The position numbers and the translations under genes are program-made. A DNA stretch of 15,231 nt, taken from assembly GCA_964416345.1 (NCBI GenBank), contig CAYQDX010000001.1:29033-44263 (forward strand). Reading direction: 5' to 3'. How positions within the stretch are numbered: position 1 is the first letter of the stretch; the number at the start of each line of letters is the position of its first letter. Shown here piece by piece: positions 48 to 13,868 of the stretch. The DNA comes from an uncultured Ectothiorhodospiraceae bacterium. GTDB taxonomy: Bacteria > Pseudomonadota > Gammaproteobacteria > CAYQDX01. The notes beneath the pieces are model-generated. The model was not told the origin of the DNA, made no database searches, and was given only the letters and a program-made list of their open reading frames with translations.

Positions 48-764
48 ATGATCGAGATCGTCCGTCAGCCGGGAATGGGTCAGCCTGCCGGCGTCTGGGC
101 CGCCGAGCCGGCGTTTTGGATGGATACGCGGCGCGGCCTGGTGCTGCCGGAGTGGGGCAGGACGCCCGTCGTGGCCGAATTCCTGGCCCATCGCGTCGCC
201 AGGTGTCCAAACGACTTGCAGGCCCATGTCCGGCGGGTGTTGTTACAGCGGCAGCTGGGGGATGCGGACGGTGTGTACGGCGCGCTGCTCGATTTGTGCA
301 TCGCGCTGCGCGGTGTCGGGCGAGAGGTTCGGGAGCGGATGCTGGGCTGTGCCGGTCCGCTGTTGTCCCCCTCGCGGCGCCAGGCGCTGGAGGCCAGACT
401 CGATGCCGGACTGGGTCCGACCGACCCCATGCCGGCTTCCCGGCATTCGGTGCTCGGTCGCGGATTGAGCGCCTCGGTCCCCGTGGTGTTGATGACCGAA
501 GGCGCACAGAAGCACGAGGCAACGGCGCTGGAGCAGGCTCGGGAGCTCATCGAATCGGGGCGCGTGGCCGAGGCTCAGGAGCTATTGGAGAGTGCCCTGG
601 TGCGCAACCCCGACGATGATGAGGTAGGGTTGGAGCTGCTCGAAGTTTACCAACACACACGGGATACCGAGTCGCTGCGCAGGATGTGCCGGCTGCTCGG
701 CAAGCTGGGCACGCCTTCGGCTCAGGCCTGGGTCGGCATGGCGGAGCTATTCGCCATCGAGTAG
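48..764 (+). CDS. Hypothetical protein with C-terminal TPR-like helical repeat. May be 5'-partial, because the reading frame stays open back to nt 3 at the window edge.
   Basis: 238-aa ORF. No stop codon lies in-frame between nt 3 and the ATG at 48, and there is no clear SD before 48. The C-terminal ~60 aa (ALEQARELIESGRVAEAQELLESALVRNPDDDEVGLELLEVYQ...) has a TPR-like / FimV-C-terminal-like helix pair pattern. It ends 44 nt before the next co-oriented gene. Confidence 0.45.
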   Translation: MIEIVRQPGMGQPAGVWAAEPAFWMDTRRGLVLPEWGRTPVVAEFLAHRVARCPNDLQAHVRRVLLQRQLGDADGVYGALLDLCIALRGVGREVRERMLGCAGPLLSPSRRQALEARLDAGLGPTDPMPASRHSVLGRGLSASVPVVLMTEGAQKHEATALEQARELIESGRVAEAQELLESALVRNPDDDEVGLELLEVYQHTRDTESLRRMCRLLGKLGTPSAQAWVGMAELFAIE

Positions 765-808
765 CACCAAGCCGCATATCTGACCCAAGACATTCCGAAG
801 GGGCCTGG

Positions 809-1990
809 ATGACGACGATGAGCAAGCCATTGAGAGTGACGGCGCTGGGCCTGGATAAGCGCTCCCGCTCAGCCCTGGAGATGATTCTGAAGGGGCCTGG
901 CAAGGGCGCCTGTGTGCTCACCGACGTGGCCGAGAGCGAGGCGGCGATAGTCGACATGGATAGACCGGAGGCGTCGATGCTATGGGAGAACTACCACCGG
1001 CACTACCCAGAGCGCCCGGGCATCGCCCTGTCGGCACAGGATTCTTGCCCCGAGGGAACGCGCCTCCAGCCCAAGCCGGTGAGCATCAACGCGCTGCTGG
1101 CCAGCCTTCGAGCGGTCGCCGAGGAGCTTGCGGGCCCGGAGGCCGCCACGGCGGAAACGGGAAAGGCTGCCGGTGCCCAGCTCGAGTCCAAGGTGGTTTC
1201 CACCAGGGGGGCGACGCAGGTCCTGGAAGATCGGGCCGTTCGCCGTTATGTGTCGGCCCTGCCCGAGTCACTGCCCGAGGACTACCGGCAGCTCTCTGAT
1301 CCCGCGTCGCGAGCCAAGCTCTTTTTCGTGCCCACGGACTACATCGGGGGCCATTTGCTGGAGGCCATCCGTGAGGCCGTAGCCAGGGGAGAGGCGCGAA
1401 TTATCCATCTGCGGGTGGGCGCGATCACCGTGGACCCGGCGGCGCATCGGACTTGGTGCGCTCTAACGGATACCCGGCTGAAGCAGGTATGCATGGTACG
1501 GGCGCACAGCGGAGACGGCGAGGCCCTGGATCTGCGGATCGAAGGACAAGCGCGCGGCGCCGCCGTCGAGGCGCCGCCAGGTGGCGGCGCGGGATTGGAC
1601 CTCGATGCGTTTGTCTGGAAGGTGGCGGTTTGGGTTTCTCGTGGCCGCGCGCCGGAGGGCACGGACCTGCAGGAGCCGGTGCTGCTGCGCCACTGGCCCA
1701 ATCTGACCCGCCTGCTGATGACCCCAAGCGTTATGCGGGTCGCCGCGATCTGGGCCAAACAGCACCGCTCGCCGGTGGAGACGGCCACCCTGCTGCGCAT
1801 CCCCTTGTCCCATGTGCTGACATTCTACGCGGCGGCGAGGGCGACCGGGTTGCTCGTGGAGGCCCGACGCCAAAAGGACGAGCTGTTCTCGCCGCCGGAC
1901 ATCGATCGACATCGCCAACGCGGTCTGCTCAGCAGGATGCTCGCCAAGATTCTTGGCGCGACACAAGGTTCAGACCAGAAGGGCACTTGA
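809..1990 (+). CDS. Hypothetical 393-aa protein. The N-terminal ~100 aa resemble a degenerate receiver (REC) fold; the rest is unrecognised.
   Basis: The listed ORF 686..1990 was trimmed to ATG 809, which is preceded by GAAGGGG (797-803) at 5-nt spacing. The N-terminus LRVTALGLDKRSRSALEMIL...AAIVDMDRPEASMLWENY...PGIALSAQ follows the REC pattern (hydrophobic strand, acidic pocket reduced to GLD, a conserved Asp in IVDMD). It is the first gene of a tight cluster with the GTPase gene 18 nt downstream. Confidence 0.6.
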   Translation: MTTMSKPLRVTALGLDKRSRSALEMILKGPGKGACVLTDVAESEAAIVDMDRPEASMLWENYHRHYPERPGIALSAQDSCPEGTRLQPKPVSINALLASLRAVAEELAGPEAATAETGKAAGAQLESKVVSTRGATQVLEDRAVRRYVSALPESLPEDYRQLSDPASRAKLFFVPTDYIGGHLLEAIREAVARGEARIIHLRVGAITVDPAAHRTWCALTDTRLKQVCMVRAHSGDGEALDLRIEGQARGAAVEAPPGGGAGLDLDAFVWKVAVWVSRGRAPEGTDLQEPVLLRHWPNLTRLLMTPSVMRVAAIWAKQHRSPVETATLLRIPLSHVLTFYAAARATGLLVEARRQKDELFSPPDIDRHRQRGLLSRMLAKILGATQGSDQKGT

Positions 1991-2008
1991 GACCAGAGGC
2001 GGGCTGCG

Positions 2009-2554
2009 GTGGAGCAACACAAGATCATATTCACGGGCCCCGTCGGGGCGGGTAAGACCACGGCCATCAATGCGATTAGCGACATCCCAACGGTGCGCAC
2101 GGACGCCACGGCCACCGACATGACGGCGGGCCGCAAGCGTGTGACTACCGTGGCCCTGGATTTTGGCGTCATGAATCTAGGACCGGACGAGCGTATTCAT
2201 CTCTACGGCACCCCAGGCCAGGAGCGCTTCGACTTCATGTGGGAGATCCTGTCTAAGGGAGCCATCGGCCTCGTGCTGTTGCTCGACAACACCCGCGCCG
2301 ATCCCTCCGCCGACCTACGCTTCTTCGTGCAGGCGTTCCGTGGGTTCATCGACCGCACGGAGCTAGCGGTGGGGGTGACCCGCATGGACCTGAGCCCCAA
2401 GCCCCGGATCGCGGACTATCACAGCGCCATCCGCGGTGTTGGACTCAAGCCGCCCGTCTTCGCGGTCGACGCCCGGGAGTCCCGGGATGTCGGGCTGCTA
2501 ATTCAGGCCCTGCTCTACAGCCTGGATCCGGGTTTGGTGGCAGCCGATGAGTGA
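2009..2554 (+). CDS. Small Ras-like GTPase (MglA / conservon CvnD-like ATP/GTP-binding protein)
   Basis: 181 aa with a GTG start. P-loop GPVGAGKTT (aa 10-18). Switch II/G3 is GTPGQERF (aa 67-74), characteristic of the CvnD/MglA-like subfamily. The G4 position reads VTRMD instead of NKxD. AGAGG lies 9 nt upstream. Its stop overlaps the start of the next gene (ATGAGTGA). Confidence 0.8.
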   Translation: MEQHKIIFTGPVGAGKTTAINAISDIPTVRTDATATDMTAGRKRVTTVALDFGVMNLGPDERIHLYGTPGQERFDFMWEILSKGAIGLVLLLDNTRADPSADLRFFVQAFRGFIDRTELAVGVTRMDLSPKPRIADYHSAIRGVGLKPPVFAVDARESRDVGLLIQALLYSLDPGLVAADE

Positions 2555-3230
2555 GCTTACTTTGGCCCCGGAGACCTATGTGGTGCCAAGTCCGGCGGGC
2601 GCGTACTACGCGGCATCCAACCGCAGCCAGGAGCCGGCCCGCGCCCTGCTGTTTAGGCTCATGAGCCTAGGGCAGACGCCGATACTCACGACGGATCTGC
2701 TGCGATCCTGGCTGGGGGACCAGCAGGTGCACACGGGGCTGGAGCTGCTGTGGCACATGCAGTCGCTGGGCTGGATTCAGGGCGCCCGGCAGGCCCGTCC
2801 GGCGCCGGCCGGGGCGCTGGACGAGATTCTTCTGGGGATGCTGGCCGAGCTCTCCAGCGAGAAGAAGGCGCTGCTGGCCGACGACAGCGGCTTCTACGTC
2901 GCCAACTACGGTTATACCCACGAGGCCGCCGAGGAGCTTTCGGCCCTGAGCGGGCGCCTGGCGTCACTCTACGAGCGTCATCGCGGCCTGCTCTACAACA
3001 ATCTGGGAATTCCCTCGGCGGCCTGGGCCGTGGTCGACGCCGCCGGCAACAGCACGATCGGCTTCTGGCCACTGTACATCGGCGTCGAGCGCTTCGTTCT
3101 GGCCATCAGCGGCATGCCGCAGCTCAGTCAGCCGGCCTTCGTCGACCTGGTCTGGGCGCTGGCGCGCCGCTACGCAGATGTGCCGGAGGTCGCTCCCGAC
3201 GCAACCGTCGTGCCCGTGCACGGTACCTGA
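2547..3230 (+). CDS. Hypothetical 227-aa protein, translationally coupled to the GTPase gene
   Basis: The ATG at 2547 overlaps the GTPase stop by 8 nt. GC3-rich codon usage is consistent with the neighbouring genes. No family recognised from the sequence alone. It sits between the GTPase and Roadblock genes, which is the position taken by the DUF742-type CvnC partner in the actinobacterial gene order cvnA-cvnB(roadblock)-cvnC-cvnD(GTPase). This arrangement is hypothetical-REC-like, GTPase, unknown, roadblock, so the order differs. Confidence 0.6.
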   Translation: MSELTLAPETYVVPSPAGAYYAASNRSQEPARALLFRLMSLGQTPILTTDLLRSWLGDQQVHTGLELLWHMQSLGWIQGARQARPAPAGALDEILLGMLAELSSEKKALLADDSGFYVANYGYTHEAAEELSALSGRLASLYERHRGLLYNNLGIPSAAWAVVDAAGNSTIGFWPLYIGVERFVLAISGMPQLSQPAFVDLVWALARRYADVPEVAPDATVVPVHGT

Positions 3231-3306
3231 GCAGGAATACATTTGCCCGCGTGGCGCCGGTGCACCACGCATTAGACCCACAGACTGGGAATAGGAGAGC
3301 CTACTC

Positions 3307-3669
3307 ATGCGCGAAGACATGCTCACCTCCATACTGAATGATCTCAAGGGCACATCTGCGGATATCGAAGCCTCGGCGGTGATCTCCACCGATGGACTCA
3401 TCATGGCGGCCCAGCTTCCGCAAGGCATCGACGGCGACCGGGTGGGCGCCATGGCCGCCGCCATGCTGTCGCTGGGTGATCGCACCGCCCAGGAGCTCAG
3501 CCGCGGACTGCTGGAGCAGGTCCTGATAAGAGGCAACAAGGGCTACGTGCTCATGACTCATGCCGGGCCCGATGCGGTGCTCTCGGTGCTTGCCTCCTCC
3601 AATGCCAAGCTGGGCCTCATCTTCTTGGATGTTGCGCGGGCCGCGGAATCCATCGCCAAGCTGGTTTAG
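3307..3669 (+). CDS. Roadblock/LC7 domain protein (MglB / CvnB-like)
   Basis: 120 aa. SAVISTDGLIMAAQLP...DRVGAMAAAMLSLGDRTAQELSRGLLEQVLIRGNKGYVLMTHAGPDAVLSVLASSNAKLGLIFLDV is the typical Roadblock/LC7 alpha-beta pattern. A strong RBS AGGAGAG sits 7 nt upstream. Confidence 0.8.
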   Translation: MREDMLTSILNDLKGTSADIEASAVISTDGLIMAAQLPQGIDGDRVGAMAAAMLSLGDRTAQELSRGLLEQVLIRGNKGYVLMTHAGPDAVLSVLASSNAKLGLIFLDVARAAESIAKLV

Positions 3670-3696
3670 CGCGGCAAGTAGAACGGAGACCAAATT

Positions 3697-4056
3697 ATGG
3701 CCAACAAAGCGTTCTTTCTGCTGCGCATGAACGATCACGTCCAGTACCTGCACAAGATCCAGGCGACGCTGGAAGGTAGGGGCGACTTTCAGGGCACGGA
3801 CTGGCACGAGTGCAAGCTGGGCAAGTGGCTCTACGGCGAAGGTGTCGCCGAGGCGGAGGCAGCCGGCCCCGAGGTCAAGGCTCTATTCGACAGCCTGTTT
3901 GAGCCCCACGAGGCCTTCCACAAGGCCAGCCACAGCGCCTTGGGCAAGCAACAGGACGGCGACGAGCAGGGCTCACGGGAGGCCGTGACCGAGATGTACC
4001 GGCTGTCGAACACCCTGGTCGAGATGCTGCTGTCCTTGGATCAGAAAAGCAACTAG
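3697..4056 (+). CDS. Stand-alone CZB (chemoreceptor zinc-binding) domain protein
   Basis: Matches the published CZB motif exactly: H-x2-Y (HVQY), then 21 residues, then C-x-L-G-x-W (CKLGKW), then 26 residues, then H-x3-H (HEAFH). The RBS GGAGA precedes the ATG. It starts 27 nt after the roadblock gene, so it is probably co-transcribed. Confidence 0.8.
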   Translation: MANKAFFLLRMNDHVQYLHKIQATLEGRGDFQGTDWHECKLGKWLYGEGVAEAEAAGPEVKALFDSLFEPHEAFHKASHSALGKQQDGDEQGSREAVTEMYRLSNTLVEMLLSLDQKSN

Positions 4057-4361: not shown

Positions 4362-6002
4362 ATGATGAACAACAAGCTCATCCAGCTGCTGCGGCAGGAG
4401 ACCAAGGCCAACCTGCTGAAGCTATTCGTCGGCTTCATCATCATCGGCGTGACCAATGCCCTGGTGCTGGTCATCGTCCACGATGTCACGGAGGCCCAAG
4501 GTCTCGACGTGATCAATTTCCGGCTCTTGATGCTGTTCGTCCTGTGCGTGGCGACCTTCTGCTACACCAAAAGAGTAGTGAACATCTGGCTGACCACCCA
4601 CGTGCAGCAGGCCATCCTACAGCTGCGCTTGCGGATCCTGGACAAGGTGCGCAGCTCCAGGCTGATGTCCTACGAAGGTCTGGATCGCTCGCAGCTCATC
4701 AACGCGCTATCCGAGAATACCCTGGTCATCGTGGAGGGGGCCAAGTACTTCGGCGAGGGTGTGCCGGCGGCAATCATGCTGCTTTGCTCATTCATCTACG
4801 TCGGCGTGATCAGCAAGGCTGCCATGGTCATCGTCGCGGTGTGTGTGCCCGCGGCGGCAGTGGTGATCTGGGCTCTGAACCGCTCCATCGCCGAGGATCT
4901 CAACACGGCCATGCACAAGGAGGACGAGTTTCTCACCGCTTTCCATCAGCTGCTGGACGGGTTCAAGGAGCTGAAGATGAGCCGGCGCAAGAGCGGCGAC
5001 TTGTTCGACAATTACCTGAGCCGGTGCTCCAAGCAGGCCAAAGACCTGAACACCAAGGCCGCCGTGAGCGTGGTCCGCTCCGATATCTACAACTATTTGT
5101 TCTTCTATCTGCTGCTGGCATCGATGTTGTTCCTGCTGCCCAAGCTCACCGTCATCAGCGCCGGGGAGACCATGAGCATCACGACGATACTGCTGTTCCT
5201 GCTGGGCAACGGTACCGTATTCGTGCAGGCCCTGCCCAACATCACCAAGACCGACGTGGCCATCGGCAACATCACCCGCATGGAGGAGGCGCTCGACGAT
5301 CTGGAGCCGCCGGTGGACTCCAGCCTCGCCAATCCCTGGCTCCCCGAGGGGGACGAGCGGGACATTGTGCTGCGCAACCTCTATTTCAGCTACGCCGGGC
5401 CTCGGGACCAGAGCTTCTCGGTGCACGTGGACCACCTGACCGTCAAGGCCGGGGAGCTGCTCTATATCCAGGGTGGCAACGGCAGCGGCAAGTCAACGCT
5501 GCTCAAGCTCCTCACGGGACTCTACAGGCCTGCAGTGGGAAGCATCGAGTACGGCGGAACGGCGGTTTCGATGGAGAATCTGCAATACTACCGGGAGTGC
5601 TTCTCCATTATCTTCGCGGACTTCCATTTGTTCGACCGGGTCTACGGTCTGGAAGGCGTGGACGCGGGCAGGGTGGCGGAGCTGCTGGTGGAAATGCAGC
5701 TCAGCGCCAAGACTAGCTACGCCCAAGGGGCCTTCCGCAACCTCAATCTGTCCACGGGCCAACGCAAGCGTCTGGCGCTGCTGGTCGCGCTGCTGGAAGA
5801 CCGGCCGGTGTGCGTATTCGACGAGGTGGCCGCGGACCAGGATCCCCAGTTCCGCAAGTATCTCTACGAAGTGATGCTGCAGAACCTCAAACGCCAGGGA
5901 AAGACCATCATCGCGGTGACCCACGATGATCGCTACTTTCACACCGCGGACCGGGTGCTGAAGATGGAATACGGACGGCTGCTCGACGAGCAGGCCGAAT
6001 GA
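4362..6002 (+). CDS. ABC transporter, fused permease-ATPase, of the cyclic-peptide exporter family (YojI / PvdE / SyrD-like)
   Basis: 546 aa. The N-terminal ~300 aa hold six hydrophobic helices. The C-terminal NBD has Walker A GGNGSGKST, the ABC signature LSTGQRKRLALL, Walker B VFDEVAADQDP (the DE-AADQDP form typical of the cyclic-peptide transporter subfamily) and an H-loop VTHD. Confidence 0.85.
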   Translation: MMNNKLIQLLRQETKANLLKLFVGFIIIGVTNALVLVIVHDVTEAQGLDVINFRLLMLFVLCVATFCYTKRVVNIWLTTHVQQAILQLRLRILDKVRSSRLMSYEGLDRSQLINALSENTLVIVEGAKYFGEGVPAAIMLLCSFIYVGVISKAAMVIVAVCVPAAAVVIWALNRSIAEDLNTAMHKEDEFLTAFHQLLDGFKELKMSRRKSGDLFDNYLSRCSKQAKDLNTKAAVSVVRSDIYNYLFFYLLLASMLFLLPKLTVISAGETMSITTILLFLLGNGTVFVQALPNITKTDVAIGNITRMEEALDDLEPPVDSSLANPWLPEGDERDIVLRNLYFSYAGPRDQSFSVHVDHLTVKAGELLYIQGGNGSGKSTLLKLLTGLYRPAVGSIEYGGTAVSMENLQYYRECFSIIFADFHLFDRVYGLEGVDAGRVAELLVEMQLSAKTSYAQGAFRNLNLSTGQRKRLALLVALLEDRPVCVFDEVAADQDPQFRKYLYEVMLQNLKRQGKTIIAVTHDDRYFHTADRVLKMEYGRLLDEQAE

Positions 6003-6005
6003 ATC

Positions 6006-6185
6006 TCAAGCGGCCCGCTGATCCGGGCGCACCTTGTCCGAGGCGAATACCATGATGAGGCCGATGAACGGGGTGAACAGCAGAGAGGCGAAAAAGTAGC
6101 CCCAGAATCCGAACTTCCTGTGGTTGCCGAGGACGGCGACGATGACGCTGAGGAGTATGTACAGGGCTATCGCCGAGCTGAGCAT
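6006..6185 (-). CDS. Small 59-aa two-helix membrane protein (not in the ORF track because it is under 60 aa)
   Basis: Minus-strand ORF MLSSAIALYILLSVIVAVLGNHRKFGFWGYFFASLLFTPFIGLIMVFASDKVRPDQRAA. Two hydrophobic helices are separated by a basic loop (NHRKFG). GAGGTG lies 4 nt upstream of the ATG. It is co-oriented with the DUF697-like gene and 73 nt downstream of it. Confidence 0.4.
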   Translation of the reverse strand: MLSSAIALYILLSVIVAVLGNHRKFGFWGYFFASLLFTPFIGLIMVFASDKVRPDQRAA

Positions 6186-6258
6186 GGGGCACCTCGCGGC
6201 CGGTGGGATTCATGGCCTGGCACCGCACCCACCGATGCCAGGCCACGAGGTGTCGCTG

Positions 6259-6807
6259 CTAGGCGGCGGCGCCGGTGGTGTGCTGCTTGACCACCAGCTT
6301 GCCCTCCTGGAACTGCTGGGCGAAATAATCCTTCACGGCTTCCGGGTCGAAGTTGAGGAAGGTGCCGCCGGATTCGAAGTGCTGGATAAACACCTTGCCC
6401 AGCGCATAAGTGGCGGCGCCGGAGAGGCTGGGCATGGTGAGGGCGCCCAGGATCGGTCCGGCAATCGGGATGACGCGCAGGGCACTGTAGACCGGCCGTG
6501 CCACGGCCGCCGGTGCTGCACCCGCCAACAGCGGCGCGATGATGTTCTTCACCATATCGTGCGAGTACGGGATTTCGTATAGCTTGCTCAGCCGGTACAA
6601 CAGGTTGAGCTGAATGCCGGTGTTGCCCACGAAATCCAGCAGGGGCAGCGGAAGGACGCCCACGCCCACCGATGCGAGCACGTGCTTCAGAACTAGGGAA
6701 TTGGCTTGCTGGGCCTTGCCGGTGCTGACCGGGAGCTGAGCCTCTGCTGCCGCGTCCGTCTGCGGCTGGGTCGCGCCCTGGTCCGATGCGGTTGATTTTT
6801 CTGTCAT
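6259..6807 (-). CDS. DUF697-like (YcjF-type) domain protein
   Basis: 182 aa. The core GVLPLPLLDFVGNTGIQLNLLYRLSKLYEIPYS...PILGALTMPSLSGAATYALGKVFIQHFESGG follows the DUF697 consensus as I recall it (..PiPlaD......iq..m...ia..YG.......LGk....yF). The N-terminus is low-complexity and Ala/Gln-rich. The family assignment is from memory and should be confirmed by an HMM search. Confidence 0.6.
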   Translation of the reverse strand: MTEKSTASDQGATQPQTDAAAEAQLPVSTGKAQQANSLVLKHVLASVGVGVLPLPLLDFVGNTGIQLNLLYRLSKLYEIPYSHDMVKNIIAPLLAGAAPAAVARPVYSALRVIPIAGPILGALTMPSLSGAATYALGKVFIQHFESGGTFLNFDPEAVKDYFAQQFQEGKLVVKQHTTGAAA

Positions 6808-7087
6808 TGGCTGGCCTCGTTGGGGTGGTTACTACAGAGGCCGGTGAACCGCCGAGCTCATCGACCATCCGGGCTGTGAGCCTTATCACACGAGTCCTAA
6901 GGTTCTCAAAGCGGTGCGGCCGTGTCAATATAGCCCCGCGCCGTACGGCGCCATGCCCAGGGGGATTGGCCGGGGCGGGCGCCATGTCCCGGCGCGACCC
7001 TCAACGCTCGTGCCGGAGTGTGGCCGTGCCGGGACCGCCACGAGTCGGTGGCGAGGGGGGGGCTGCAGGCACAGGAGCTCCAAGCTG

Positions 7088-7390
7088 ATGACCACGATCG
7101 ACGTTTTTCCGGGCCAGGGCTCTGAGAAGAAGGGCATGGGGGCCGAGCTCGAAGCATTTCTGGCCGGCGTCGACTTTGCGCCCTTGCAGATTCCGGTTGT
7201 CTCGAATGTCCATGCCAGGCCCAACGCGCCGGGCGAGATCTGCCAGAATCTCGCCAGCCAGATGACCCACCCCTTGCGCGGGACCGAGAGCACCCAGTAC
7301 CTGCTGCGCCAGCCCGATCCGCAGATCGAGGAGGTCGGTCCCGGGACGGTGGGCGCGGGCCTCATTCCACAGATCAAGGCAGCCGCTTGA
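7088..7390 (+). CDS. Truncated FabD-like acyltransferase remnant. It keeps the N-terminal GQGS oxyanion region and the C-terminal helix, but lacks the GHSxGE nucleophile and the catalytic His.
   Basis: The 100-aa ORF starts at ATG 7088, with AGGAG 10 nt upstream. MTTIDVFPGQGSEKKGMGAELEAF aligns to the FabD N-terminus (FAFVFPGQGSQTVGM...). PLQIPVVSNVHARP...HPLRGTESTQYLLRQ...EEVGPGTVGAGLIPQI aligns to the FabD C-terminus (PTVPVVNNVDV...NPVQWTKSVEYM...YEVGPGKVLTGLTKRI). The ~200-aa catalytic middle is absent, and the deletion is in-frame. Confidence 0.5.
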   Translation: MTTIDVFPGQGSEKKGMGAELEAFLAGVDFAPLQIPVVSNVHARPNAPGEICQNLASQMTHPLRGTESTQYLLRQPDPQIEEVGPGTVGAGLIPQIKAAA

Positions 7391-8172
7391 GCTCATGCTC
7401 CGGCGCGGCCGGTGCCATGGCAGGCGCCCATGAGGCGGCGGGACCGGCCCTGCCGCTGCTGCTGGAGACGCGCGATGGTCCGCTGCGGGCCGCCTTTGCG
7501 CAGGTGGGTGCCGGCGAATATGCAGCCGTGGAGCACTCGCGCCGGATCTGGCTGCACCCGACGGAGCTGCGCTACTTGGACACGCTGAGCGCGGAGCGCC
7601 GCCGGCGCAGTTATCTGCTGGGTCGCTGCGCCGCCAAGCGCGCTCTGTGCTGTCTGCTGCCCCAGGCGCCCGCAGCGCAGCTAGAGGTCGCAAACGGGGT
7701 CTTCGGCCAGCCGGTGCTGCGCTATGCGACCTCAGAGCCCGTGGATCTCAGCATCAGCCATACGAATCAGCTGGGCTGCGCGCTGGCATTTCCCGCCCTG
7801 CATCCCATGGGGCTGGACGTGGAGCAGGTGAGCGTCGAGCGGGCGCACGTCATGCAGAGCCAGATGGTGGCGGAAGAGCTAGCCGCCGCAGAAGCGGCGG
7901 TGGGCTCGGCGCCGGCGGCGTGTGCCCTGCTGTGGACCGCCAAGGAGGCCCTGTCCAAGGCGCTGCGCTGCGGCATGACCTGTCCCTTCGAGCTGATGGC
8001 CGTGGCCGGCATCGAGGGTGAGCCCCCCGCGCTGGGGGGACGTTTCCGCAATTTCGGCCAGTACCAATTCCAAACCTGGATTGGCGCCGGGACGGTGCTC
8101 AGCCTGGTGCTGCCCCGCAGCAGCCGGCTGTTGACGGACCTGAGCTCTGCGGCGGCCGGGATGCCGGCGTGA
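7387..8172 (+). CDS. 4'-phosphopantetheinyl transferase (Sfp/EntD-type PPTase)
   Basis: PPTase motifs are present: LGRCAAKRAL (like motif P1/P2 L-GR-AAKEA), SISHT, GLDVEQV (G-x-D-x-E) and WTAKEALSKAL (W-x-x-KEA-x-K). The listed start is TTG 7387, overlapping the upstream stop. The first in-frame ATG is at 7417, so the exact start is uncertain. Confidence 0.8.
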   Translation: MSSCSGAAGAMAGAHEAAGPALPLLLETRDGPLRAAFAQVGAGEYAAVEHSRRIWLHPTELRYLDTLSAERRRRSYLLGRCAAKRALCCLLPQAPAAQLEVANGVFGQPVLRYATSEPVDLSISHTNQLGCALAFPALHPMGLDVEQVSVERAHVMQSQMVAEELAAAEAAVGSAPAACALLWTAKEALSKALRCGMTCPFELMAVAGIEGEPPALGGRFRNFGQYQFQTWIGAGTVLSLVLPRSSRLLTDLSSAAAGMPA

Positions 8173-9155
8173 GTCCTGTCATTTGGATGTGCTCCGGTCA
8201 GGGCTCCCAGTATTACCACATGGGCAAGGACCTCTACGACGCCGAGCCCGTCTTTCGCGGCACCATGGATTCCTGCAGCGAGATCCTGCGACCCATGATC
8301 GGCTTGTCGCTGAGCGAGCTGCTGTACAGGCCCCGTGCCGATCGCTTCGCGGCCTTCGACCGGACCCTCTACAGCGGACCCGCCATCTGCTGCCTGCAGT
8401 ATGCCGTGGCCCAGCTGCTGCGCGCCCGCGGCTGCGCACCCGACGCGGTGCTGGGCTACAGCATTGGGGAGGTATCCGCCGCAGTCATCGCCGGCGGGCT
8501 GACACTTGCAGACGGGTTGGAGGCAGCTGTGCGGCTTGCCGAGCTGTTGGAAGCGCGGATCCCGGAGGGCGGCATGCTGGCCGTGCTGGCCAGGCCGGAG
8601 ATCCTACGGGCACGGCCGGATGTGTTTGCCGGCACCTGGGTCTCCGCCTGGAACTTCCCCGCCCATTTCGTCCTGAGCGGCACAGGCCACGCCATCGCCC
8701 GGGTAGAGCAAGGCCTTGCGGTCCACCAAATCGGCTGCCAGCGCCTGCCGGTGCGCTTCGCCTTTCATTCGCCCCTGATCGAGCCCATAGGCGAGGCGCT
8801 GATGGCGCATCTGGCACGGCTCGATTACCGGCAGCCGCGCATGGCGCTGATCTCGGCGACGCTGGGCGGTGACAGGCTGGAGCCGTCACCGGAGATCCTG
8901 TGGGGTGTGCTGCGCCAGCCGGTGGACTTCGCGCGCACCGTGCAAGTCATCGAAGGCTGGGGGCCCCACACTTATGTGGATCTGGGGCCGTCTGGCACGC
9001 TGGCGACGTTCGTGAAGTACAACCTGTCCGCGAGCTCCGAATCTAGGGTAGCGTCCACCGTCACGCCCTTCGGTCGGGCCGTGCAGAACATGGAGGGCGA
9101 TCTGCTGCGACCGGTGCGACGGCAAGCCGCGGACCCCGGTAGGTCGTCACCCTAG
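8169..9155 (+). CDS. Acyltransferase of the malonyl-CoA:ACP transacylase (FabD/PKS-AT) fold, with GYSIGE at the nucleophile elbow
   Basis: 328 aa. The GTG start at 8169 overlaps the PPTase stop (GTGA). SGQGSQYYHMG matches the oxyanion region. LGYSIGEVSAAVIAGG matches GHSLGEYSAL of FabD, with Tyr in place of His. The Arg in LLEARIPEGG, and AFHSPL carrying the catalytic His, are both present. Confidence 0.8.
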   Translation: MSPVIWMCSGQGSQYYHMGKDLYDAEPVFRGTMDSCSEILRPMIGLSLSELLYRPRADRFAAFDRTLYSGPAICCLQYAVAQLLRARGCAPDAVLGYSIGEVSAAVIAGGLTLADGLEAAVRLAELLEARIPEGGMLAVLARPEILRARPDVFAGTWVSAWNFPAHFVLSGTGHAIARVEQGLAVHQIGCQRLPVRFAFHSPLIEPIGEALMAHLARLDYRQPRMALISATLGGDRLEPSPEILWGVLRQPVDFARTVQVIEGWGPHTYVDLGPSGTLATFVKYNLSASSESRVASTVTPFGRAVQNMEGDLLRPVRRQAADPGRSSP

Positions 9156-9320: not shown

Positions 9321-10679
9321 ATGAGCAGATTCCTGGTACGCTTCTACCCGTCGCTCGTTGCCGTGGTGCTGGGCGCGGTGACTCTGGGGCTGCTCATGGT
9401 GCCGGGTGAGGTAGGACCCGAGATTCACGGCGTCCGCGGCTGGCTCTCGGTCTACGCGGCGCATATCACCGTGGTGCTGTTGGTGGCCGCCCTGATTTGG
9501 GCCAATGCGGCGCGCGAGCGACTGGCGGCCGTCAGCGACCGAGGGCGCCGCTGGGTGCGCCGTCAGATCATCCCACTGGCGGTCGTTGGGCTGCTCTTCG
9601 TCTGGCTGTTCATCTACCTCATCCCCAACATCTTCATCTTCGTCAAGCCCGGCGAGGGCGGGGTCCTGTGGCACCGCTTCGGCAACGGCACGGTCACAGA
9701 CAGGTCCTACGGCGAAGGCACACACATCATCCTGCCGTGGGACCTGATGTACATATACAATGTCAGGCTGCAGAATCGGACCCAAGTATTCGAAGTGCTG
9801 TCCAAGGACGGCCTGCTCTACCACGTGGCCCTCACCATCCGCTTCAGGCTGATCCTCGAGGATCTGGGTCTGCTGCATCAGCACGTGGGACCGGACTACG
9901 TCAACACGCTCATCTTTCCCGAGCTCGGCTCCCATGCCCGGGCGCTGATGGCTCAATACCGCGCAGATGAGGTCTACACGACCCGGCGTCTGGAAATCGA
10001 GAACGAGATTCTCGCCCGGCTGCGCCGGGAGATGGTGGTGGGCTACATCCCGGAGGTCAAGCGGGAGAGCTACCTGCATGTCGAGAATGTACTGGTTCGC
10101 CAGATCATCCTGCCGAAGAAGGTGGCAGACGCCATCGAGAACAAGCTGGCTCAGGAGCAAATGATGCTGGAGTACGACTTCCGTCTCGGCAAGGAAATGA
10201 AAGAGGCCGAGCGCAAGCGCATCGAAGCTTACGGTATCCGCGACTTCCAGTCCATTGTGCGGCAGGGCATCTCGGAGCAGCTGCTCAAGTGGAAGGGCAT
10301 CAACGCCACCCTGGAGCTGGCCAGGTCGAACAACAGCAAGATCGTGGTCATCGGTGCGGGCAAGGAAGGGATGCCGCTTATCCTCGGCGGCTTCGACAGC
10401 TCAGCGTCCGCAGCGAGATCAACGCCGGCGAATCCGCAAGGGAGTGTCGGCTCGTCCGAGGACGGTCAATCCACCGAGTCCCAGGGACTGGACTGGCTAC
10501 AACCAGAAGCCTCGGAGACCGGCCTCAGCGCGGCACCGGATGGCAGCCGCGCCGAGCCTGCCTTGCCGGCGATGGACTACAAGCCGGCGCCATCCGCGGT
10601 CGCGCCGGCGGGGCGTGCCCCTGACGGCAACACCGCCGGCGGGCGTGCGGCCCCGGTGACACAGCCTCCCATGCCCTGA
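9321..10679 (+). CDS. SPFH/Band-7 (prohibitin/HflC-like) domain membrane protein with a long low-complexity C-terminal tail
   Basis: The listed ORF 9186..10679 was trimmed to ATG 9321; an alternative GTG at 9312 lies 4 nt after AGGGTGA. There are three hydrophobic segments before VKPGEGGVLWHRFGNGT...THIILPWDLMYIYNVRLQNRTQVFEVLSKDGL...VALTIRFRL, which is the SPFH core pattern. A coiled-coil-like segment follows. The last ~110 aa are rich in Pro/Ala/Ser/Gly. Confidence 0.75.
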   Translation: MSRFLVRFYPSLVAVVLGAVTLGLLMVPGEVGPEIHGVRGWLSVYAAHITVVLLVAALIWANAARERLAAVSDRGRRWVRRQIIPLAVVGLLFVWLFIYLIPNIFIFVKPGEGGVLWHRFGNGTVTDRSYGEGTHIILPWDLMYIYNVRLQNRTQVFEVLSKDGLLYHVALTIRFRLILEDLGLLHQHVGPDYVNTLIFPELGSHARALMAQYRADEVYTTRRLEIENEILARLRREMVVGYIPEVKRESYLHVENVLVRQIILPKKVADAIENKLAQEQMMLEYDFRLGKEMKEAERKRIEAYGIRDFQSIVRQGISEQLLKWKGINATLELARSNNSKIVVIGAGKEGMPLILGGFDSSASAARSTPANPQGSVGSSEDGQSTESQGLDWLQPEASETGLSAAPDGSRAEPALPAMDYKPAPSAVAPAGRAPDGNTAGGRAAPVTQPPMP

Positions 10680-10714
10680 GACCGTCAATTTACGGGCGTT
10701 TCTCACGCGCACGC

Positions 10715-11224
10715 TCACGGCTGCGTATTGAGGGCGACGAGCTCTTTGAGCGTATCGGGATCGTCCCAGTCTCGCTTGCCCACGACGTGCATTGCCACGC
10801 GGCCTTTCGGATCCAGCACGTAGGTGGCGGGCAGCAGCTGTATGCCCCATTCCTGACTCACCGCCGCATCCGGGTCCAACAGCACGGGGAAGCTCACTGG
10901 GGAGTCATCCAGGAAGCGCTGGATTTGGTACTGCGTCTGGGCGATGTTGAGGGCTAGCACCTGAACGTCATTGCGTCGCAGCCGCCTCCAGGCTTGCTGC
11001 AGGCTTGGCATTTCCTCGCGGCACGGACCGCACCAGGTCGCCCAAAAGGTCACGACCACGACCTTGCCGCGATAGTCGCTCAGGCGATGGGTTGCACCGT
11101 CCAGATCGGACAGATTGAATTCCGGAAGCATGGATGCCGTGGTCGTCGGCACTGTTTCGGCGGCGTGGGCGCCGGCCGCAAATAGCAGCGTGGTCCAAAA
11201 CATGGCGGTGAGCAATAGGCGCAT
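10715..11224 (-). CDS. Secreted TlpA/ResA-like thioredoxin-fold thiol:disulfide oxidoreductase (redoxin family)
   Basis: The listed ORF 10715..11413 was trimmed to Met at 11224, which is preceded by AAAGGAG with a 9-nt spacer. The N-terminus MRLLLTAMFWTTLLFAAGAHAAE is a signal peptide. The active site is WATWCGPC (CxxC). The remainder is a typical TlpA-like fold (VVVVTFWATWCGPCREEMP...LLDPDG). Confidence 0.8.
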   Translation of the reverse strand: MRLLLTAMFWTTLLFAAGAHAAETVPTTTASMLPEFNLSDLDGATHRLSDYRGKVVVVTFWATWCGPCREEMPSLQQAWRRLRRNDVQVLALNIAQTQYQIQRFLDDSPVSFPVLLDPDAAVSQEWGIQLLPATYVLDPKGRVAMHVVGKRDWDDPDTLKELVALNTQP

Positions 11225-11397
11225 CGTAGTATTCTCCTTTGACGTGCCAGAGGGTCCATCTGGCGGGCATCCCAGCGGCATTCGCCTACTAATCTGGAAT
11301 TGTCTGCATTGAATACCGAATAGAGTTTTCGTTGCCGATCCAAGGGTCACAATGCAGCTAGAGATGCGCGCGTCGATGCAACTGCCGCATACTGCTG

Positions 11398-11415
11398 TTG
11401 TGACAGGCCCCACAA
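11398..11415. promoter_or_regulatory. Second CRP-like site TTGTGA-caggcc-CCACAA
   Basis: Near-palindrome: 5 of 6 bases match per arm, and TGTGA-N6-CCACA compares with the TGTGA-N6-TCACA consensus. It lies ~175 bp upstream of the tlpA-like start codon. Confidence 0.25.
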
Positions 11416-11568
11416 TTCCTACTTTCGGTGTGACGGACGGCAGACTTGCAGGTAGGTCGGACGGGACCTAGGCGCCGAATGCCCCGCGGATTGTGACGCA
11501 GAATTTGCCGCGGGTAGCTGCGTCAACAAAGGCGGGTCGGGCGTGGCGATCGCGAGGCGCGAGCCATT

Positions 11569-11584
11569 CGTGACGTGTGTCACG
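11569..11584. promoter_or_regulatory. Perfect CRP-family palindrome cGTGAC-gtgt-GTCACg (core GTGA-N6-TCAC) in a divergent non-coding region
   Basis: The sequence CGTGACGTGTGTCACG is a 6+6 inverted repeat with a 4-nt centre. It fits the CRP/Vfr-type core GTGA-N6-TCAC. It lies in the 1.1-kb non-coding region between the divergent tlpA-like and Sel1 genes. Confidence 0.3.
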
Positions 11585-12251
11585 TGAAGTTTGTGCGGGA
11601 ATTCTTTTGGCACGTGCAATCCGTGCGCGCCGGTCAATCGAGAGTGGGTCTTCGCTTCGCGTGCTTTGCGGCTTGACCAGAGTGCTTTTTCTTCGGTCCG
11701 GAGCAAACGAGCGCTCTCGGCAAGGCGGAAGGATGGCAAGGAATTCTATATCGTGGTCCGTGCTATTCCCGGTCGAATGCTTTTGATTGCGAAGCAGCGC
11801 AAATTCGTCAATGCGGAATTGGTTGGAGCTAGTCCGCCGAGCGTCGCTGCAATTTATAGGCTTGAACCGGTACCGCGATATGTCTATTTCTGCACCCCGG
11901 GTACGGGGTTACGGCTTTGCTTTTCTTGTAGGTTCTTGCGTCAAGTCGATCCCGGGCAGCCACTATTTCGGCGGTACTCTGCCGAAGCCGCAATCGTCGC
12001 TGAGCAAGGGCCGCGGAAAGAAATAATTGTCCCAAGATTGCGCCGGATATGGGGACGGATTCAAGGCGCGGCAAGGGGCGCATAGCCCGGACTATGCAAC
12101 GCTTGCCACCGCATCCCGCTCGGCCGCCTGCGAGCTGCCGGCCGGCAATCCACCGGCCAATAGGCGGAGCGCGCTTCGGTGCACGTCGCTCCATTTTGCG
12201 GTGTGGGCTTCCGTCGAGTGTCGCAGGGGCTCGATTGTCAGTCGCAAGATA

Positions 12252-12257
12252 TATAAT
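12252..12257 (+). promoter_or_regulatory. TATAAT -10-like hexamer upstream of the Sel1-repeat gene
   Basis: ATATATAATATT is the only strongly AT-rich patch within 100 nt upstream of ATG 12312. The -35 is unclear, because TTGTCA at 12235-12240 is too close. Confidence 0.2.
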
Positions 12258-12311
12258 ATTCAGCCTTCGCCTCGGCTACGATCAAGGCGCTGCAATTCCC
12301 TGGAGAGCACT

Positions 12312-13073
12312 ATGAAACGGATTGCCGGCTGCTTGCTGATCTTTTTCATGATCGGGATGAGTGCCCGGGCGGAGCATTCCGAGTCGGATTTTGCGAGGGG
12401 TCTCAGCGCATATGGCAAAGGTGATTTCGCCGCCGCACTGGCAAGCTGGCGCCCATTGGCCGAGCAGGGCAACCCGGTGGCACAGCTCAACGTTGGCGTC
12501 ATGTTTGCCAAAGGCGAGGGCGTGGCCCAGGACGATGGTCAGGCGGTCGAGTGGATTCGCAAGGCTGCGAGTCAGGGCTATGCTCAGGCCCGGCTCAGTC
12601 TGGCCAACATGTACTTCGCCGGCCGCGGGGTGTCGAAGGATTTGCCGCAGGCGGCCACACTCTACCGTCAGGCGGCTGAGCAGGGCAATTCTGTTGCGCA
12701 GCAGAATGTCGCCAACATGTACTACAAGGGCCAGGGTGTGGCGCGGGACGAGCAGGCCGCCGCCCAGTGGTATCTCAAGGCGGCGGCTCAGAACCAGGCA
12801 CTGGCGCAGTACAATGTCGGTGTCATGTACGCCATAGGACACGTGGGACTGGAGCAGGACTACGCCCAAGCCTATCTGTGGCTGACGCTTGCCTCCCGTA
12901 GAGGAGTGGGGCCGGCGGAAGCCGCGCTGGAGCAGATTTCTGCGAAGATGAGCCCCGAGGCCGTCGCGCGGGGGAAGGCTCTGGTAGAGCGCTGGCGCCC
13001 GCAGACGATGGCCGGACCCGGTGGGACCGCCGGTGCGTCATCGGCGACCCCTAAGCCGCAAGTCATCCCCTAG
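12312..13073 (+). CDS. Secreted Sel1-like repeat (SLR/TPR-family) protein
   Basis: The listed ORF 12027..13073 was trimmed to ATG 12312, with GGAGAG 4 nt upstream. The N-terminus MKRIAGCLLIFFMIGMSARA is a signal peptide. About five Sel1 repeats follow (A-x-L-G-x-MY-x-G-x-GV-x-D-x-x-A-x-WY-x-KAA-x-QG). Confidence 0.8.
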   Translation: MKRIAGCLLIFFMIGMSARAEHSESDFARGLSAYGKGDFAAALASWRPLAEQGNPVAQLNVGVMFAKGEGVAQDDGQAVEWIRKAASQGYAQARLSLANMYFAGRGVSKDLPQAATLYRQAAEQGNSVAQQNVANMYYKGQGVARDEQAAAQWYLKAAAQNQALAQYNVGVMYAIGHVGLEQDYAQAYLWLTLASRRGVGPAEAALEQISAKMSPEAVARGKALVERWRPQTMAGPGGTAGASSATPKPQVIP

Positions 13074-13407
13074 CGCTTCCGACGCTGTTCCTCGGGTGCG
13101 GCCGGCTCGGTGAGAAACCGCGTGCATCTTTTCCGAATATTATTGTTTGCGGAATATCTTAATCTATGGGAAATATGCGCAGATGTGGACAGGAAACTTG
13201 CACAGCTGGCCAATGGGCTGCAAGAGGAGCAGAGTCGGCTCTTCCACTAGGTTTCCGCCAATCCCAAGGCCCCGGCATGATGCAACAGCGGCGCGGGCCA
13301 AGCCCGCGAGGGATGTCGTTCGCCATTAACAAGTGGTTGTTGTGGCAGTATTATTCCCTACTGCCCGGAGGGGGCTAGAGCAGATTTTTCGAATGCGGAC
13401 GATTTCT

Positions 13408-13416
13408 TGGTAGAAT
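13408..13416 (+). promoter_or_regulatory. Extended -10 promoter element TGgTAGAAT
   Basis: TG-n-TAGAAT sits inside the AT-richer leader, ~130 nt upstream of the 92-aa ORF start. There is a weak -35 (TTCGAA) 17 nt upstream. Confidence 0.25.
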
Positions 13417-13547
13417 GGAGCTGTTTGGGCACCATGAAGCAGCCATGAAGAACAATAGGGAATGACTCTGGATAGGCCGGCGGCGCGCGCTCTGGCTGGG
13501 AAGCCGACGGCCGAGATCGACCACATGACTTTGATAAGGAAACAGGA

Positions 13548-13826
13548 ATGCAAGAGACCTCAAATGTGGAGATGGGTAGTGCCCGCCAGTTTCGCGTGAT
13601 GCTGGTGGAGAAGACGAGCGTGCCACACGGCGGCGCGGAGGATGACACCTGGTACCGATATGTCCTGAGCAGCGGCTGCTCGGCGATAACCGGCTGGCGC
13701 CGTGGCTCCCTGCAGGAGGTCACCCAGCACGCTACCCGGTGCACCGAAGAGCTCAACGCCCGCAGCCGCGGAGGCACCTCCTCCTGGTCACCCCGCCGCA
13801 AGAAGGTTGGCTCCAGCGCAGGCTGA
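13548..13826 (+). CDS. Hypothetical 92-aa protein
   Basis: The ATG at 13548 is preceded by AAGGA at 7-nt spacing. Third-position GC is high and matches the genome style, unlike the AT-richer leader upstream. It is convergent with glcF and separated from it by a GC-rich hairpin. No family recognised. Confidence 0.4.
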   Translation: MQETSNVEMGSARQFRVMLVEKTSVPHGGAEDDTWYRYVLSSGCSAITGWRRGSLQEVTQHATRCTEELNARSRGGTSSWSPRRKKVGSSAG

Positions 13827-13844
13827 TACGAGCCAGCACCTGGC

Positions 13845-13868
13845 AGGCGCACGGCTCCGGGTGCGCCT
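13845..13868. terminator. GC-rich hairpin between the convergent small ORF and glcF (candidate bidirectional terminator)
   Basis: aGGCGCAC-ggctccgg-GTGCGCCt gives an 8-bp stem and an 8-nt loop. On the plus strand it is followed by a short CTTTGG run. It lies exactly between the two convergent stop codons (13826 and 13868). Confidence 0.3.

Follow-up and report, generated by a model that had tools for sequence, protein, structure and literature searches.

Prokaryotic GTPases of the MglA family were split into five groups by Wuichet and Søgaard-Andersen in 2014 (PMC4316618), and the third of these appears to hold the closest described counterparts of the locus analysed here, positions 48-4056 of a 15,231-nucleotide stretch of DNA from an uncultured Ectothiorhodospiraceae bacterium (assembly GCA_964416345.1, contig CAYQDX010000001.1, positions 29,033 to 44,263), which we refer to as the window. 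Group 3 MglA is almost exclusive to beta- and gammaproteobacteria, and in its architecture a protein labelled DUF, made of a receiver-like (REC-like) domain, a variable linker and a winged helix-turn-helix-like (wHTH-like) domain, is followed by MglA and then by one or two MglB proteins (PMC4316618). The wHTH-like call was obtained via Phyre2, and a transcriptional output was suggested (PMC4316618). Groups 2 to 5 have a threonine in place of the arginine finger (giving TT) and GTPGQ as their G3 motif; Groups 2 and 3 further share a G4 motif without lysine, deviating from [NT]KxD, and DAR as G5, with Group 2 having NxFD (PMC4316618). The order DUF, MglA, MglB, MglB is given in Table S2 of that study for Neisseria, Acidithiobacillus, Teredinibacter, Leptothrix, Methylomicrobium alcaliphilum and Methylomonas methanica, among others, with MEALZ_2464 (M. 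alcaliphilum, 178 amino acids, aa) and Metme_1347 (M. methanica, 179 aa) as listed GTPases (PMC4316618), and the two MglBs of such 1:2 systems form separate co-evolving clades. As far as sequence can tell, our reading, held with moderate confidence, is that the six genes of the locus form one operon for a Group 3 MglA-type system, of the subtype with one GTPase and two MglB proteins.

The conserved cluster opens with the gene for a 238-aa TPR protein (48-764), which ends 44 nucleotides (nt) upstream of the co-oriented gene for a 393-aa DUF partner of REC-linker-wHTH-like layout (809-1990). These are followed by an MglA-family small GTPase of 181 aa with a GTG start (2009-2554), a long Roadblock protein of 227 aa (MglB-1, 2547-3230), a canonical Roadblock/LC7 protein of 120 aa (MglB-2, 3307-3669) and a stand-alone CZB protein of 119 aa (3697-4056), all on the forward strand. 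The original prediction had described the last five as co-oriented genes with overlaps or gaps below 80 nt, and their open reading frames, coordinates and spacing were all confirmed: the successive junctions from the 393-aa gene to the CZB gene are 18 nt, an 8-nt overlap (gccgATGAGTGAgctt, 2547-2554), 76 nt and 27 nt, and purine-rich motifs resembling ribosome-binding sites precede the starts of the 120-aa and CZB genes. The overlap between the GTPase stop and the 227-aa start, ATGAGTGA, suggests that the two genes are translationally coupled. Tight junctions and the same gene order in relatives support the proposed single operon, but its extent of five genes proved too small, the TPR gene having been missed. 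A promoter and terminator scan of the window gave a result no better than that for shuffled sequence, and Rfam and tRNA scans of the window were empty.

The GTPase is recognised by Pfam PF03029 (4.9e-13), with weak matches to Roc, Ras and MMR_HSR1, and among proteins of solved structure those closest in sequence are Thermus and Myxococcus MglA (E ~1e-4). It carries the P-loop GPVGAGKT as G1 (residues 10-17, nt 2036-2059), a Thr-Thr pair in G2 (T46-T47), GTPGQ as G3 (residues 67-71, nt 2207-2221), TRMD without lysine as G4 (residues 124-127, nt 2378-2389) and DAR as G5 (residues 154-156, nt 2468-2476), and each of these motif residues is at least 90% conserved in 73 orthologues. The set equals the published signature of Groups 2 and 3, and its G4 is not the NxFD of Group 2. 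The GTPase is very probably an MglA-family switch without an intrinsic arginine finger, with the two Roadblock proteins as its MglB-type partners and the 393-aa protein as its conserved DUF partner.

The shorter Roadblock protein is the more readily recognised of the two, matching Pfam Robl_LC7 at 1.7e-17 as well as the Roadblock structures 7f8m (2e-23) and CvnB5 (3leq, 9e-12); most of its positions are at least 90% conserved over 74 orthologues, and one source annotates it as a 'predicted regulator of Ras-like GTPase activity (Roadblock/LC7/MglB family)'. The 227-aa protein, for which an unknown fold had been proposed, turns out by structure and by family-wide Pfam matches to be a second, divergent Roadblock/MglB protein. 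Its N-terminal extension of ~85 residues, helical and beta (nt 2547-2801), precedes a divergent Roadblock/LC7 domain (residues ~88-210, nt 2808-3176) with the alpha-beta-beta-alpha-beta-beta-beta fold. While the window protein itself has only a faint Pfam match to Robl_LC7 (E = 0.07), Pfam LAMTOR5 is matched by 11 of 25 members of its family, and structural matches include LAMTOR2/3/5 and Rag C-terminal domains. Comparisons with hhalign of the extension and of the middle and C-terminal domains of the 393-aa protein, with Roadblock and with each other, are uninformative: the positive control, the C-terminus of the 227-aa protein against the short Roadblock family, also scored nothing.

As for the 393-aa protein, neither Pfam nor NCBIfam holds a model covering it or the 227-aa protein, and its domains are predicted from an AlphaFold2 model (predicted local distance difference test, pLDDT, 72 overall and 80-90 within domains). 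The model comprises a domain with REC fold (residues ~8-107, nt 830-1129), a linker that is disordered and varies in length (~111-153, nt 1139-1267), an alpha/beta middle domain (residues ~170-280) and a wHTH-like C-terminal domain of three helices plus strand (~300-351, nt 1706-1861); the input alignment was shallow (9 sequences), which makes inter-domain packing unreliable. The family is large, an exhaustive search giving about 2,000 clusters at 50% identity, and the word-indexed homologue search gave only 7 when the query was one sequence and 9 when it was a profile of 42 sequences. The N-terminus has the (beta/alpha)5 flavodoxin-like REC fold, with FrzS and a Myxococcus xanthus receiver among its top structural matches. 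Across the family K89-P90 are invariant or nearly so. In an alignment of the family profile with CheY, S75 falls opposite T87; K89-P90 and S75 are the only anchors of this alignment, and it does not fix the acceptor Asp. Further along, a highly conserved WK...GR.P...WPNxTRL block holds the invariant G279, P297 and R301. The original domain calls thus hold: the 393-aa protein, for which Pfam gives no match, has a receiver-like N-terminus, and Pfam confirms the GTPase (MglA/CvnD-like), the Roadblock and the stand-alone CZB proteins. The TPR protein matches Pfam TPR_14 (1.4e-6) and TPR_19 (2.4e-5), with its C-terminal TPR region at about residues 155-210.

We then asked how far this arrangement recurs, using a species-level scan (one genome per species) in which 80 loci were fetched and analysed by open reading frame calling and phmmer with the window proteins. 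At least 662 homologues of the 227-aa protein exist, and its relatives are encoded in at least 431 species-level genomes. In almost all loci of sufficient length, TPR, 393-aa protein, GTPase, 227-aa protein and Roadblock come in this sequence and on one strand; all five are kept in at least 63 of 78 species-level loci, the remainder being mostly truncated contigs, and the TPR gene stands upstream of a 393-aa homologue in at least 63 of the 78. The arrangement is found in nearly all of the 80 species-representative loci, and its recurrence is far beyond chance. The GTPase-to-227-aa junction lies between -23 and +7 nt (median 1 nt) in all 67 loci measured, and the TPR-to-393-aa junction has a median of -4 nt, with overlap in 33 of 59 pairs. 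Relative to orthologues in Methylotuvimicrobium buryatense, identity is 66% for the GTPase, 73% for the short Roadblock protein, ~50% for the 227-aa protein (orthologue P0082), 29% for the 393-aa protein and 27% for the TPR protein (E = 7e-25 against the gene in the same position). Flanking genes are wholly different among four annotated relatives, and the cluster is therefore a self-contained unit. Hosts comprise Methylococcales, Chromatiales, Thiotrichaceae, Sedimenticola, Thiodiazotropha, Ectothiorhodospiraceae, Halothiobacillaceae and gammaproteobacterial metagenome-assembled genomes (MAGs); all named loci in the scan are from Gammaproteobacteria, and the hosts are mostly gradient-dwelling methanotrophs and sulfur oxidisers.

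The scan also returned several variants of the cluster. One locus (L075, 1-5748) is rearranged and has two tandem paralogues of the 393-aa gene, and one MAG has two complete cluster copies on different contigs (L037 and L054). Additionally, in four Methylococcales loci (L013, L058, L059 and L072) the short Roadblock gene is duplicated in tandem, giving three mglB genes.

Taken together, the motifs, the architecture and the congener loci match Group 3, and we therefore regard the core as the catalogued system and the 227-aa protein as its first MglB. With the 1:2 subtype of Group 3, exemplified by Neisseria (NMB0476-), MEALZ_2464 and Metme_1347, the locus shares gene order, the DUF layout with its REC-like, linker and wHTH-like parts, two MglB genes downstream of mglA, a GTPase of 178-181 aa, the motifs (P-loop, Thr-Thr, GTPGQ, a G4 that lacks lysine and is not NxFD, and DAR) and gammaproteobacterial hosts, within the beta- and gammaproteobacterial range of the group. 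Orthology to listed members is indicated indirectly, by congener and GTPase length: syntenic loci encode GTPases of 178 aa in M. buryatense (L001) and 179 aa in a Methylomonas sp. (L079), the lengths listed for their congeners. Three features of the present loci are not mentioned in the published account of Group 3, namely a TPR gene that is translationally coupled and lies upstream, an extension of ~85 aa at the N-terminus of the first MglB, and the stand-alone sensor genes, here CZB, beside the MglB genes. Our literature search found no description of the TPR gene or of the sensor slot of Group 3 operons. TPR membership of the operon and a variable sensor slot thus appear to be new content around a core that was already catalogued.

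In the window the sensor slot is occupied by the CZB gene. Its 119-aa product matches Pfam CZB at 4.5e-13 (49.8 bits against a gathering cutoff of 29.4) and carries the full 3His/1Cys site, HxxY...CxLGxW...HxxxH, a spacing that we take to be that of the CZB zinc-site motif; the ligands are H14 (nt 3736-3738), C39 (3811-3813), H71 (3907-3909) and H75 (3919-3921). Six other loci, which come from different MAGs, have an orthologous CZB gene immediately behind the short Roadblock gene (60-66% protein identity), and the ligands are invariant in all seven CZB proteins of the slot. More generally, stand-alone sensor-type genes lie after the short Roadblock gene or between both Roadblock genes in 64 of 75 informative loci, a census that leaves outside the count the window and L086, both with CZB after Roadblock. 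By far the commonest arrangement is Roadblock, PAS and a PhnD-like binding protein without signal peptide (37 loci), followed by Roadblock then CZB (5 loci), protoglobin then Roadblock (4), and Roadblock, protoglobin, PAS and PhnD-like protein (4). Rarer forms are PhnD-like protein, 149-aa protein, Roadblock, PAS and PhnD-like protein (3 loci), two tandem Roadblocks followed by PAS and PhnD-like protein (3), Roadblock then FIST (1) and other sensor-bearing arrangements (7), and a sensor gene is absent from 11 loci. Among these variants, the one with CZB is in the minority. The zinc- or redox-responsive switch of the original prediction keeps a plausible CZB input, which gains comparative support from the other stand-alone sensors that occupy this slot in relatives.

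Several neighbours of the slot deserve mention in their own right. A ~248-aa protein of PhnD-like phosphonate-binding fold, without signal peptide, is encoded next after the stand-alone PAS gene in almost every case and is present in most PAS-bearing loci (for instance L001, 9906-10652, and L084, 11712-12458); it has the look of a ligand sensor of the cytoplasm that the GTPase operon has co-opted. In L043, L069, L070 and L078, a conserved protein of ~149 aa without Pfam match (for instance L078, 11493-11942) is encoded between the Roadblock genes together with a second PhnD-like gene. One of the loci counted under other arrangements, L035, has between its two Roadblock genes (10678-14522) a 903-aa PAS-SpoIIE(PP2C)-HATPase_c_2 protein and a 376-aa STAS-PhnD-like fusion, that is, partner-switching components inside a GTPase operon. 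Finally, a thioredoxin-domain protein is encoded directly 3' of the CZB gene in L042 (11579-12025), which fits a thiol/redox theme and is a single case.

How such an operon might work, most plausibly as a cytoplasmic G-protein switch, can be sketched from its parts. Roadblock dimers bind GTPases and the MglB clades co-evolve in 1:2 systems, and we therefore propose an MglB-1/MglB-2 heterodimer, in which the start/stop overlap would keep synthesis of MglB-1 stoichiometric with that of the GTPase. On balance we favour a heterodimeric platform that would bind the GTPase and set its nucleotide state, most likely in the role of GTPase-activating protein (GAP), an activity shown by MglB and by the conservon Roadblock MfpD (PMC3199381; PMC13343842). 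CZB domains sense Zn2+, HOCl or redox potential and O2 (PMC8262984; bioRxiv 10.64898/2026.07.03.735341), and with about the same degree of confidence, or a shade less, the CZB protein would serve as the input, zinc loss or gain at its 3His/1Cys site, in response to oxidants or to the supply of zinc, altering its contact with the Roadblock pair or the GTPase. The GTP-bound GTPase would in turn act via the REC-wHTH-like protein and the coupled TPR protein, which could serve as effector or adaptor in the manner of SgmX. The operon has no kinase gene, and the REC domain would therefore either bind proteins as a pseudo-receiver or receive its phosphate from an unlinked kinase. One further possibility is that the invariant R280 and R301 of the 393-aa protein, in its WPNxTRL region, supply the arginine finger missing in Group 2-5 GTPases and their MglBs. 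The output may most likely be changed transcription, a tentative choice that we favour only slightly over a spatial or pilus output, in which a cellular machine such as type IV pili would be recruited. Protoglobin and many PAS domains are sensors of O2 or redox state. A broader and more speculative reading, possible rather than probable, would make Group 3 operons modular cytoplasmic O2/redox G-protein systems, with interchangeable sensors on a Roadblock heterodimer and with TPR and REC-wHTH effectors. The slot parallels the accessory inputs of conservons, where CvnF (GAF) and CvnE (P450) at the 3' end act as sensory inputs (PMC13343842), and the natural globin-Roadblock fusion HGbRL (PMC4476040).

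A number of observations weigh against the Group 3, CZB-gated and transcriptional reading set out above. The assignment to Group 3 rests on motifs, gene order and congener loci rather than on a phylogeny with reference sequences. The call of a wHTH domain draws on AlphaFold2 secondary structure, on the 2014 Phyre2 statement and on MarR, HTH_20 and OhrR matches that are sub-threshold (E about 0.05-0.3), and the C-terminus of the 393-aa protein can thus be said to look like such a domain. In the receiver, the likely phospho-acceptor D49 at the strand end is D or N across the family and D51 is invariant, which makes phosphorylation of the REC domain uncertain. The 11 of 75 informative loci without slot sensor indicate that a sensor is not obligatory. 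Furthermore, in a crude neighbour-joining tree of concatenated GTPase, MglB-1 and MglB-2, five other CZB-bearing loci form one tight clade and the window falls outside it, near PAS-bearing loci; either this tree is wrong or the CZB gene moved between cluster lineages. Lastly, the Group 3 system of Snodgrassella, the only one with phenotypes, yielded data on type IV pilus motility and host colonisation and not on transcription (PMC11112851).

This last point leads us to the first rival, a spatial switch for polarity or type IV pili in which the REC protein would be a RomR/FrzS-like adaptor and the TPR protein SgmX-like, with the sensors biasing motility in redox or O2 gradients. Several points favour it: MglA of M. 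xanthus binds the REC-domain proteins RomR, FrzS and AglZ (PMC4316618), and the TPR protein SgmX is an effector of MglA-GTP there (PMC7519303); the sole Group 3 phenotypes, in Snodgrassella, are pilus-type motility and gut colonisation; the REC domain has FrzS and the M. xanthus receiver among its top structural matches; the hosts mostly dwell in gradients; and CZB and protoglobin are classic taxis inputs. We regard it as doubtful: neither in the window nor in the four annotated relatives is the cluster bordered by genes for pili or motility, the GTPase lacks the arginine finger and TVPGQ of Group 1, and the 393-aa protein ends in a wHTH-like domain and not in a Pro/Glu-rich tail of the RomR type. 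The resemblance to RomR noted in the original prediction appears to stop at the REC fold, and Pfam and NCBIfam return no RomR or RomX for the 393-aa protein, to which these sequences were not directly compared.

In our preferred reading the CZB protein belongs to the operon. It could instead be a mere neighbour, a zinc buffer or independent sensor beside a functional unit formed by the five-gene core, an alternative that draws on the sensor-less loci, on the place of the window apart from the CZB-bearing clade in the rough tree, on the existence of CZB-only proteins elsewhere (PMC8262984) and on the scans of the window, which give no promoter or terminator evidence either way. We consider this unlikely, given the common strand, the 27-nt gap and own ribosome-binding site of the gene, the CZB orthologues with invariant ligands at the same position in six other loci, the slot sensors in 64 of 75 loci and the direct precedent of the conservon accessory sensors (PMC13343842).

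Similarly improbable is the downstream half of a two-component-like pathway, in effect a conservon with its kinase elsewhere, where an unlinked kinase would phosphorylate the REC domain and the GTPase and Roadblocks would modulate it. The receiver does keep Lys89-Pro90, Ser75 and the acidic D16, D49 and D51, and in the sister Group 2 systems a kinase is the central component (PMC4316618; PMC13343842). Against this, no kinase is encoded in or beside the cluster in the window or in relatives, and Pfam finds neither HATPase_c nor HisKA in the seven window proteins; Response_reg matches 1 of 42 members of the 393-aa family (E = 0.016), and the strand-end Asp varies between D and N. DUF742, PATAN and HATPase gave no matches in searches of the window proteins and of members of the 393-aa and 227-aa families, with none for DUF742 at E<=1 in 42 and 25 members, respectively, so that the original description was right in finding neither a CvnA-type kinase nor DUF742. 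The original claim of a small-GTPase system distinct from all catalogued ones is very improbable: although the 393-aa and 227-aa proteins lack Pfam and NCBIfam models and we found no paper on the TPR gene or sensor slot, the core architecture, motif signature and taxonomic range are those of Group 3, whose DUF, MglA, MglB, MglB order was catalogued in 2014 with congener loci in Table S2 (PMC4316618).

Beyond the operon, after a gap of 305 nt, the window continues with a cyclic-peptide/multidrug-type ABC exporter (4362-6002, forward strand; TIGR01194, 276 bits), followed by ~1.4 kb (6003-7386) whose longest open reading frames, 6167-6985 (reverse, 272 aa) and 6914-7390 (forward, 158 aa), have no Pfam match. 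A 4'-phosphopantetheinyl transferase (7387-8172) and an acyltransferase (Acyl_transf_1, 8169-9155) follow on the forward strand with a 4-nt overlap, and together with the exporter they may be what is left in view of a small gene cluster for a lipid or secondary metabolite, as a fragment. Further downstream are an AhpC/TSA-type peroxiredoxin with an N-terminal extension of ~90 residues (10715-11413, reverse) and a region of lower G+C content (11000-12500, 0.58 against ~0.65) with a Sel1-repeat protein (12027-13073, forward).

Comparison with systems of known behaviour places the locus more precisely. Within Group 3, the mgl system of Snodgrassella likewise has one mglA and two coupled mglB genes, with a colonisation benefit and altered soft-agar motility as phenotypes; it differs in coming from a betaproteobacterium and in that the informative mutation is in a third, orphan mglB (PMC11112851). 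In Neisseria meningitidis, NMB0477, annotated 'GTP-binding protein, unknown', adjoins NMB0476, the tag of the MC58 Group 3 locus, and for this reason is probably its GTPase; a literature search by locus tag gave nothing beyond its line in a proteomics table. NMB0477 is 5.1-fold up in an nrrF-deleted strain compared with the complemented one and is a predicted direct target of NrrF, an iron/Fur-controlled small RNA that also controls components of the respiratory chain (PMC5586341).

Actinobacterial conservons (AGPS; CvnA-D with CvnE/CvnF, Group 2 MglA) share with the window an operon-encoded GTPase with DAR as G5 and a G4 without lysine, a Roadblock protein and optional stand-alone sensor inputs at the 3' end (PMC13343842). 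On the other hand, the window has neither a CvnA kinase nor CvnC/DUF742, its G4 is TRMD and not NxFD, and it has two Roadblocks where the conservon has one, in addition to REC-wHTH-like and TPR partners; the sensors are CZB, PAS, protoglobin or FIST in the present loci as opposed to GAF or P450 in conservons. Membership was rejected on the absence of a CvnA-type kinase (in the window and in the clusters of relatives) and of DUF742, and on the G4. The M. xanthus module (MglA, MglB, RomR/RomX, MglC and RomY) likewise combines a GTPase with a Roadblock GAP and has further regulators of the Roadblock family, a partner with a REC domain and, in SgmX, a TPR effector, but its Group 1 MglA has an intrinsic arginine finger and TVPGQ in place of TT and GTPGQ, and the genes for RomR, RomX and SgmX are unlinked and differ in their non-REC regions. 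Membership of Group 1 was rejected as well, there being no arginine finger beside the G2 Thr and no TVPGQ.

The CZB sensors DgcZ and TlpD/McpA have the same 3His/1Cys zinc site and are likewise cytoplasmic (PMC8262984; PMC6715182). In the known examples the CZB domain is joined to a GGDEF or chemoreceptor output, whereas that of the window stands alone; 'CZB-only' proteins are a recognised architecture class (PMC8262984), and in our literature search no paper connected a stand-alone CZB protein with an operon for a small GTPase. Group 3 is widespread, its hosts including Neisseria, Xanthomonas, Stenotrophomonas, methanotrophs and sulfur-oxidising symbionts, and the comparative pattern yields hypotheses on input (zinc, redox or O2) and wiring (from sensor to Roadblock pair to GTPase) that would extend the actinobacterial principle of accessory sensors to proteobacteria and are testable in Methylotuvimicrobium. 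If true, the modular reading would give a first role to a 'CZB-only' protein and would make these operons a bacterial counterpart of the logic of Ragulator/Rag, the eukaryotic and Asgard system in which an unlike Roadblock pair is likewise a platform for small GTPases; the heterodimer proposed here would resemble it in structure alone, nothing pointing to a common ancestry closer than the Roadblock superfamily.

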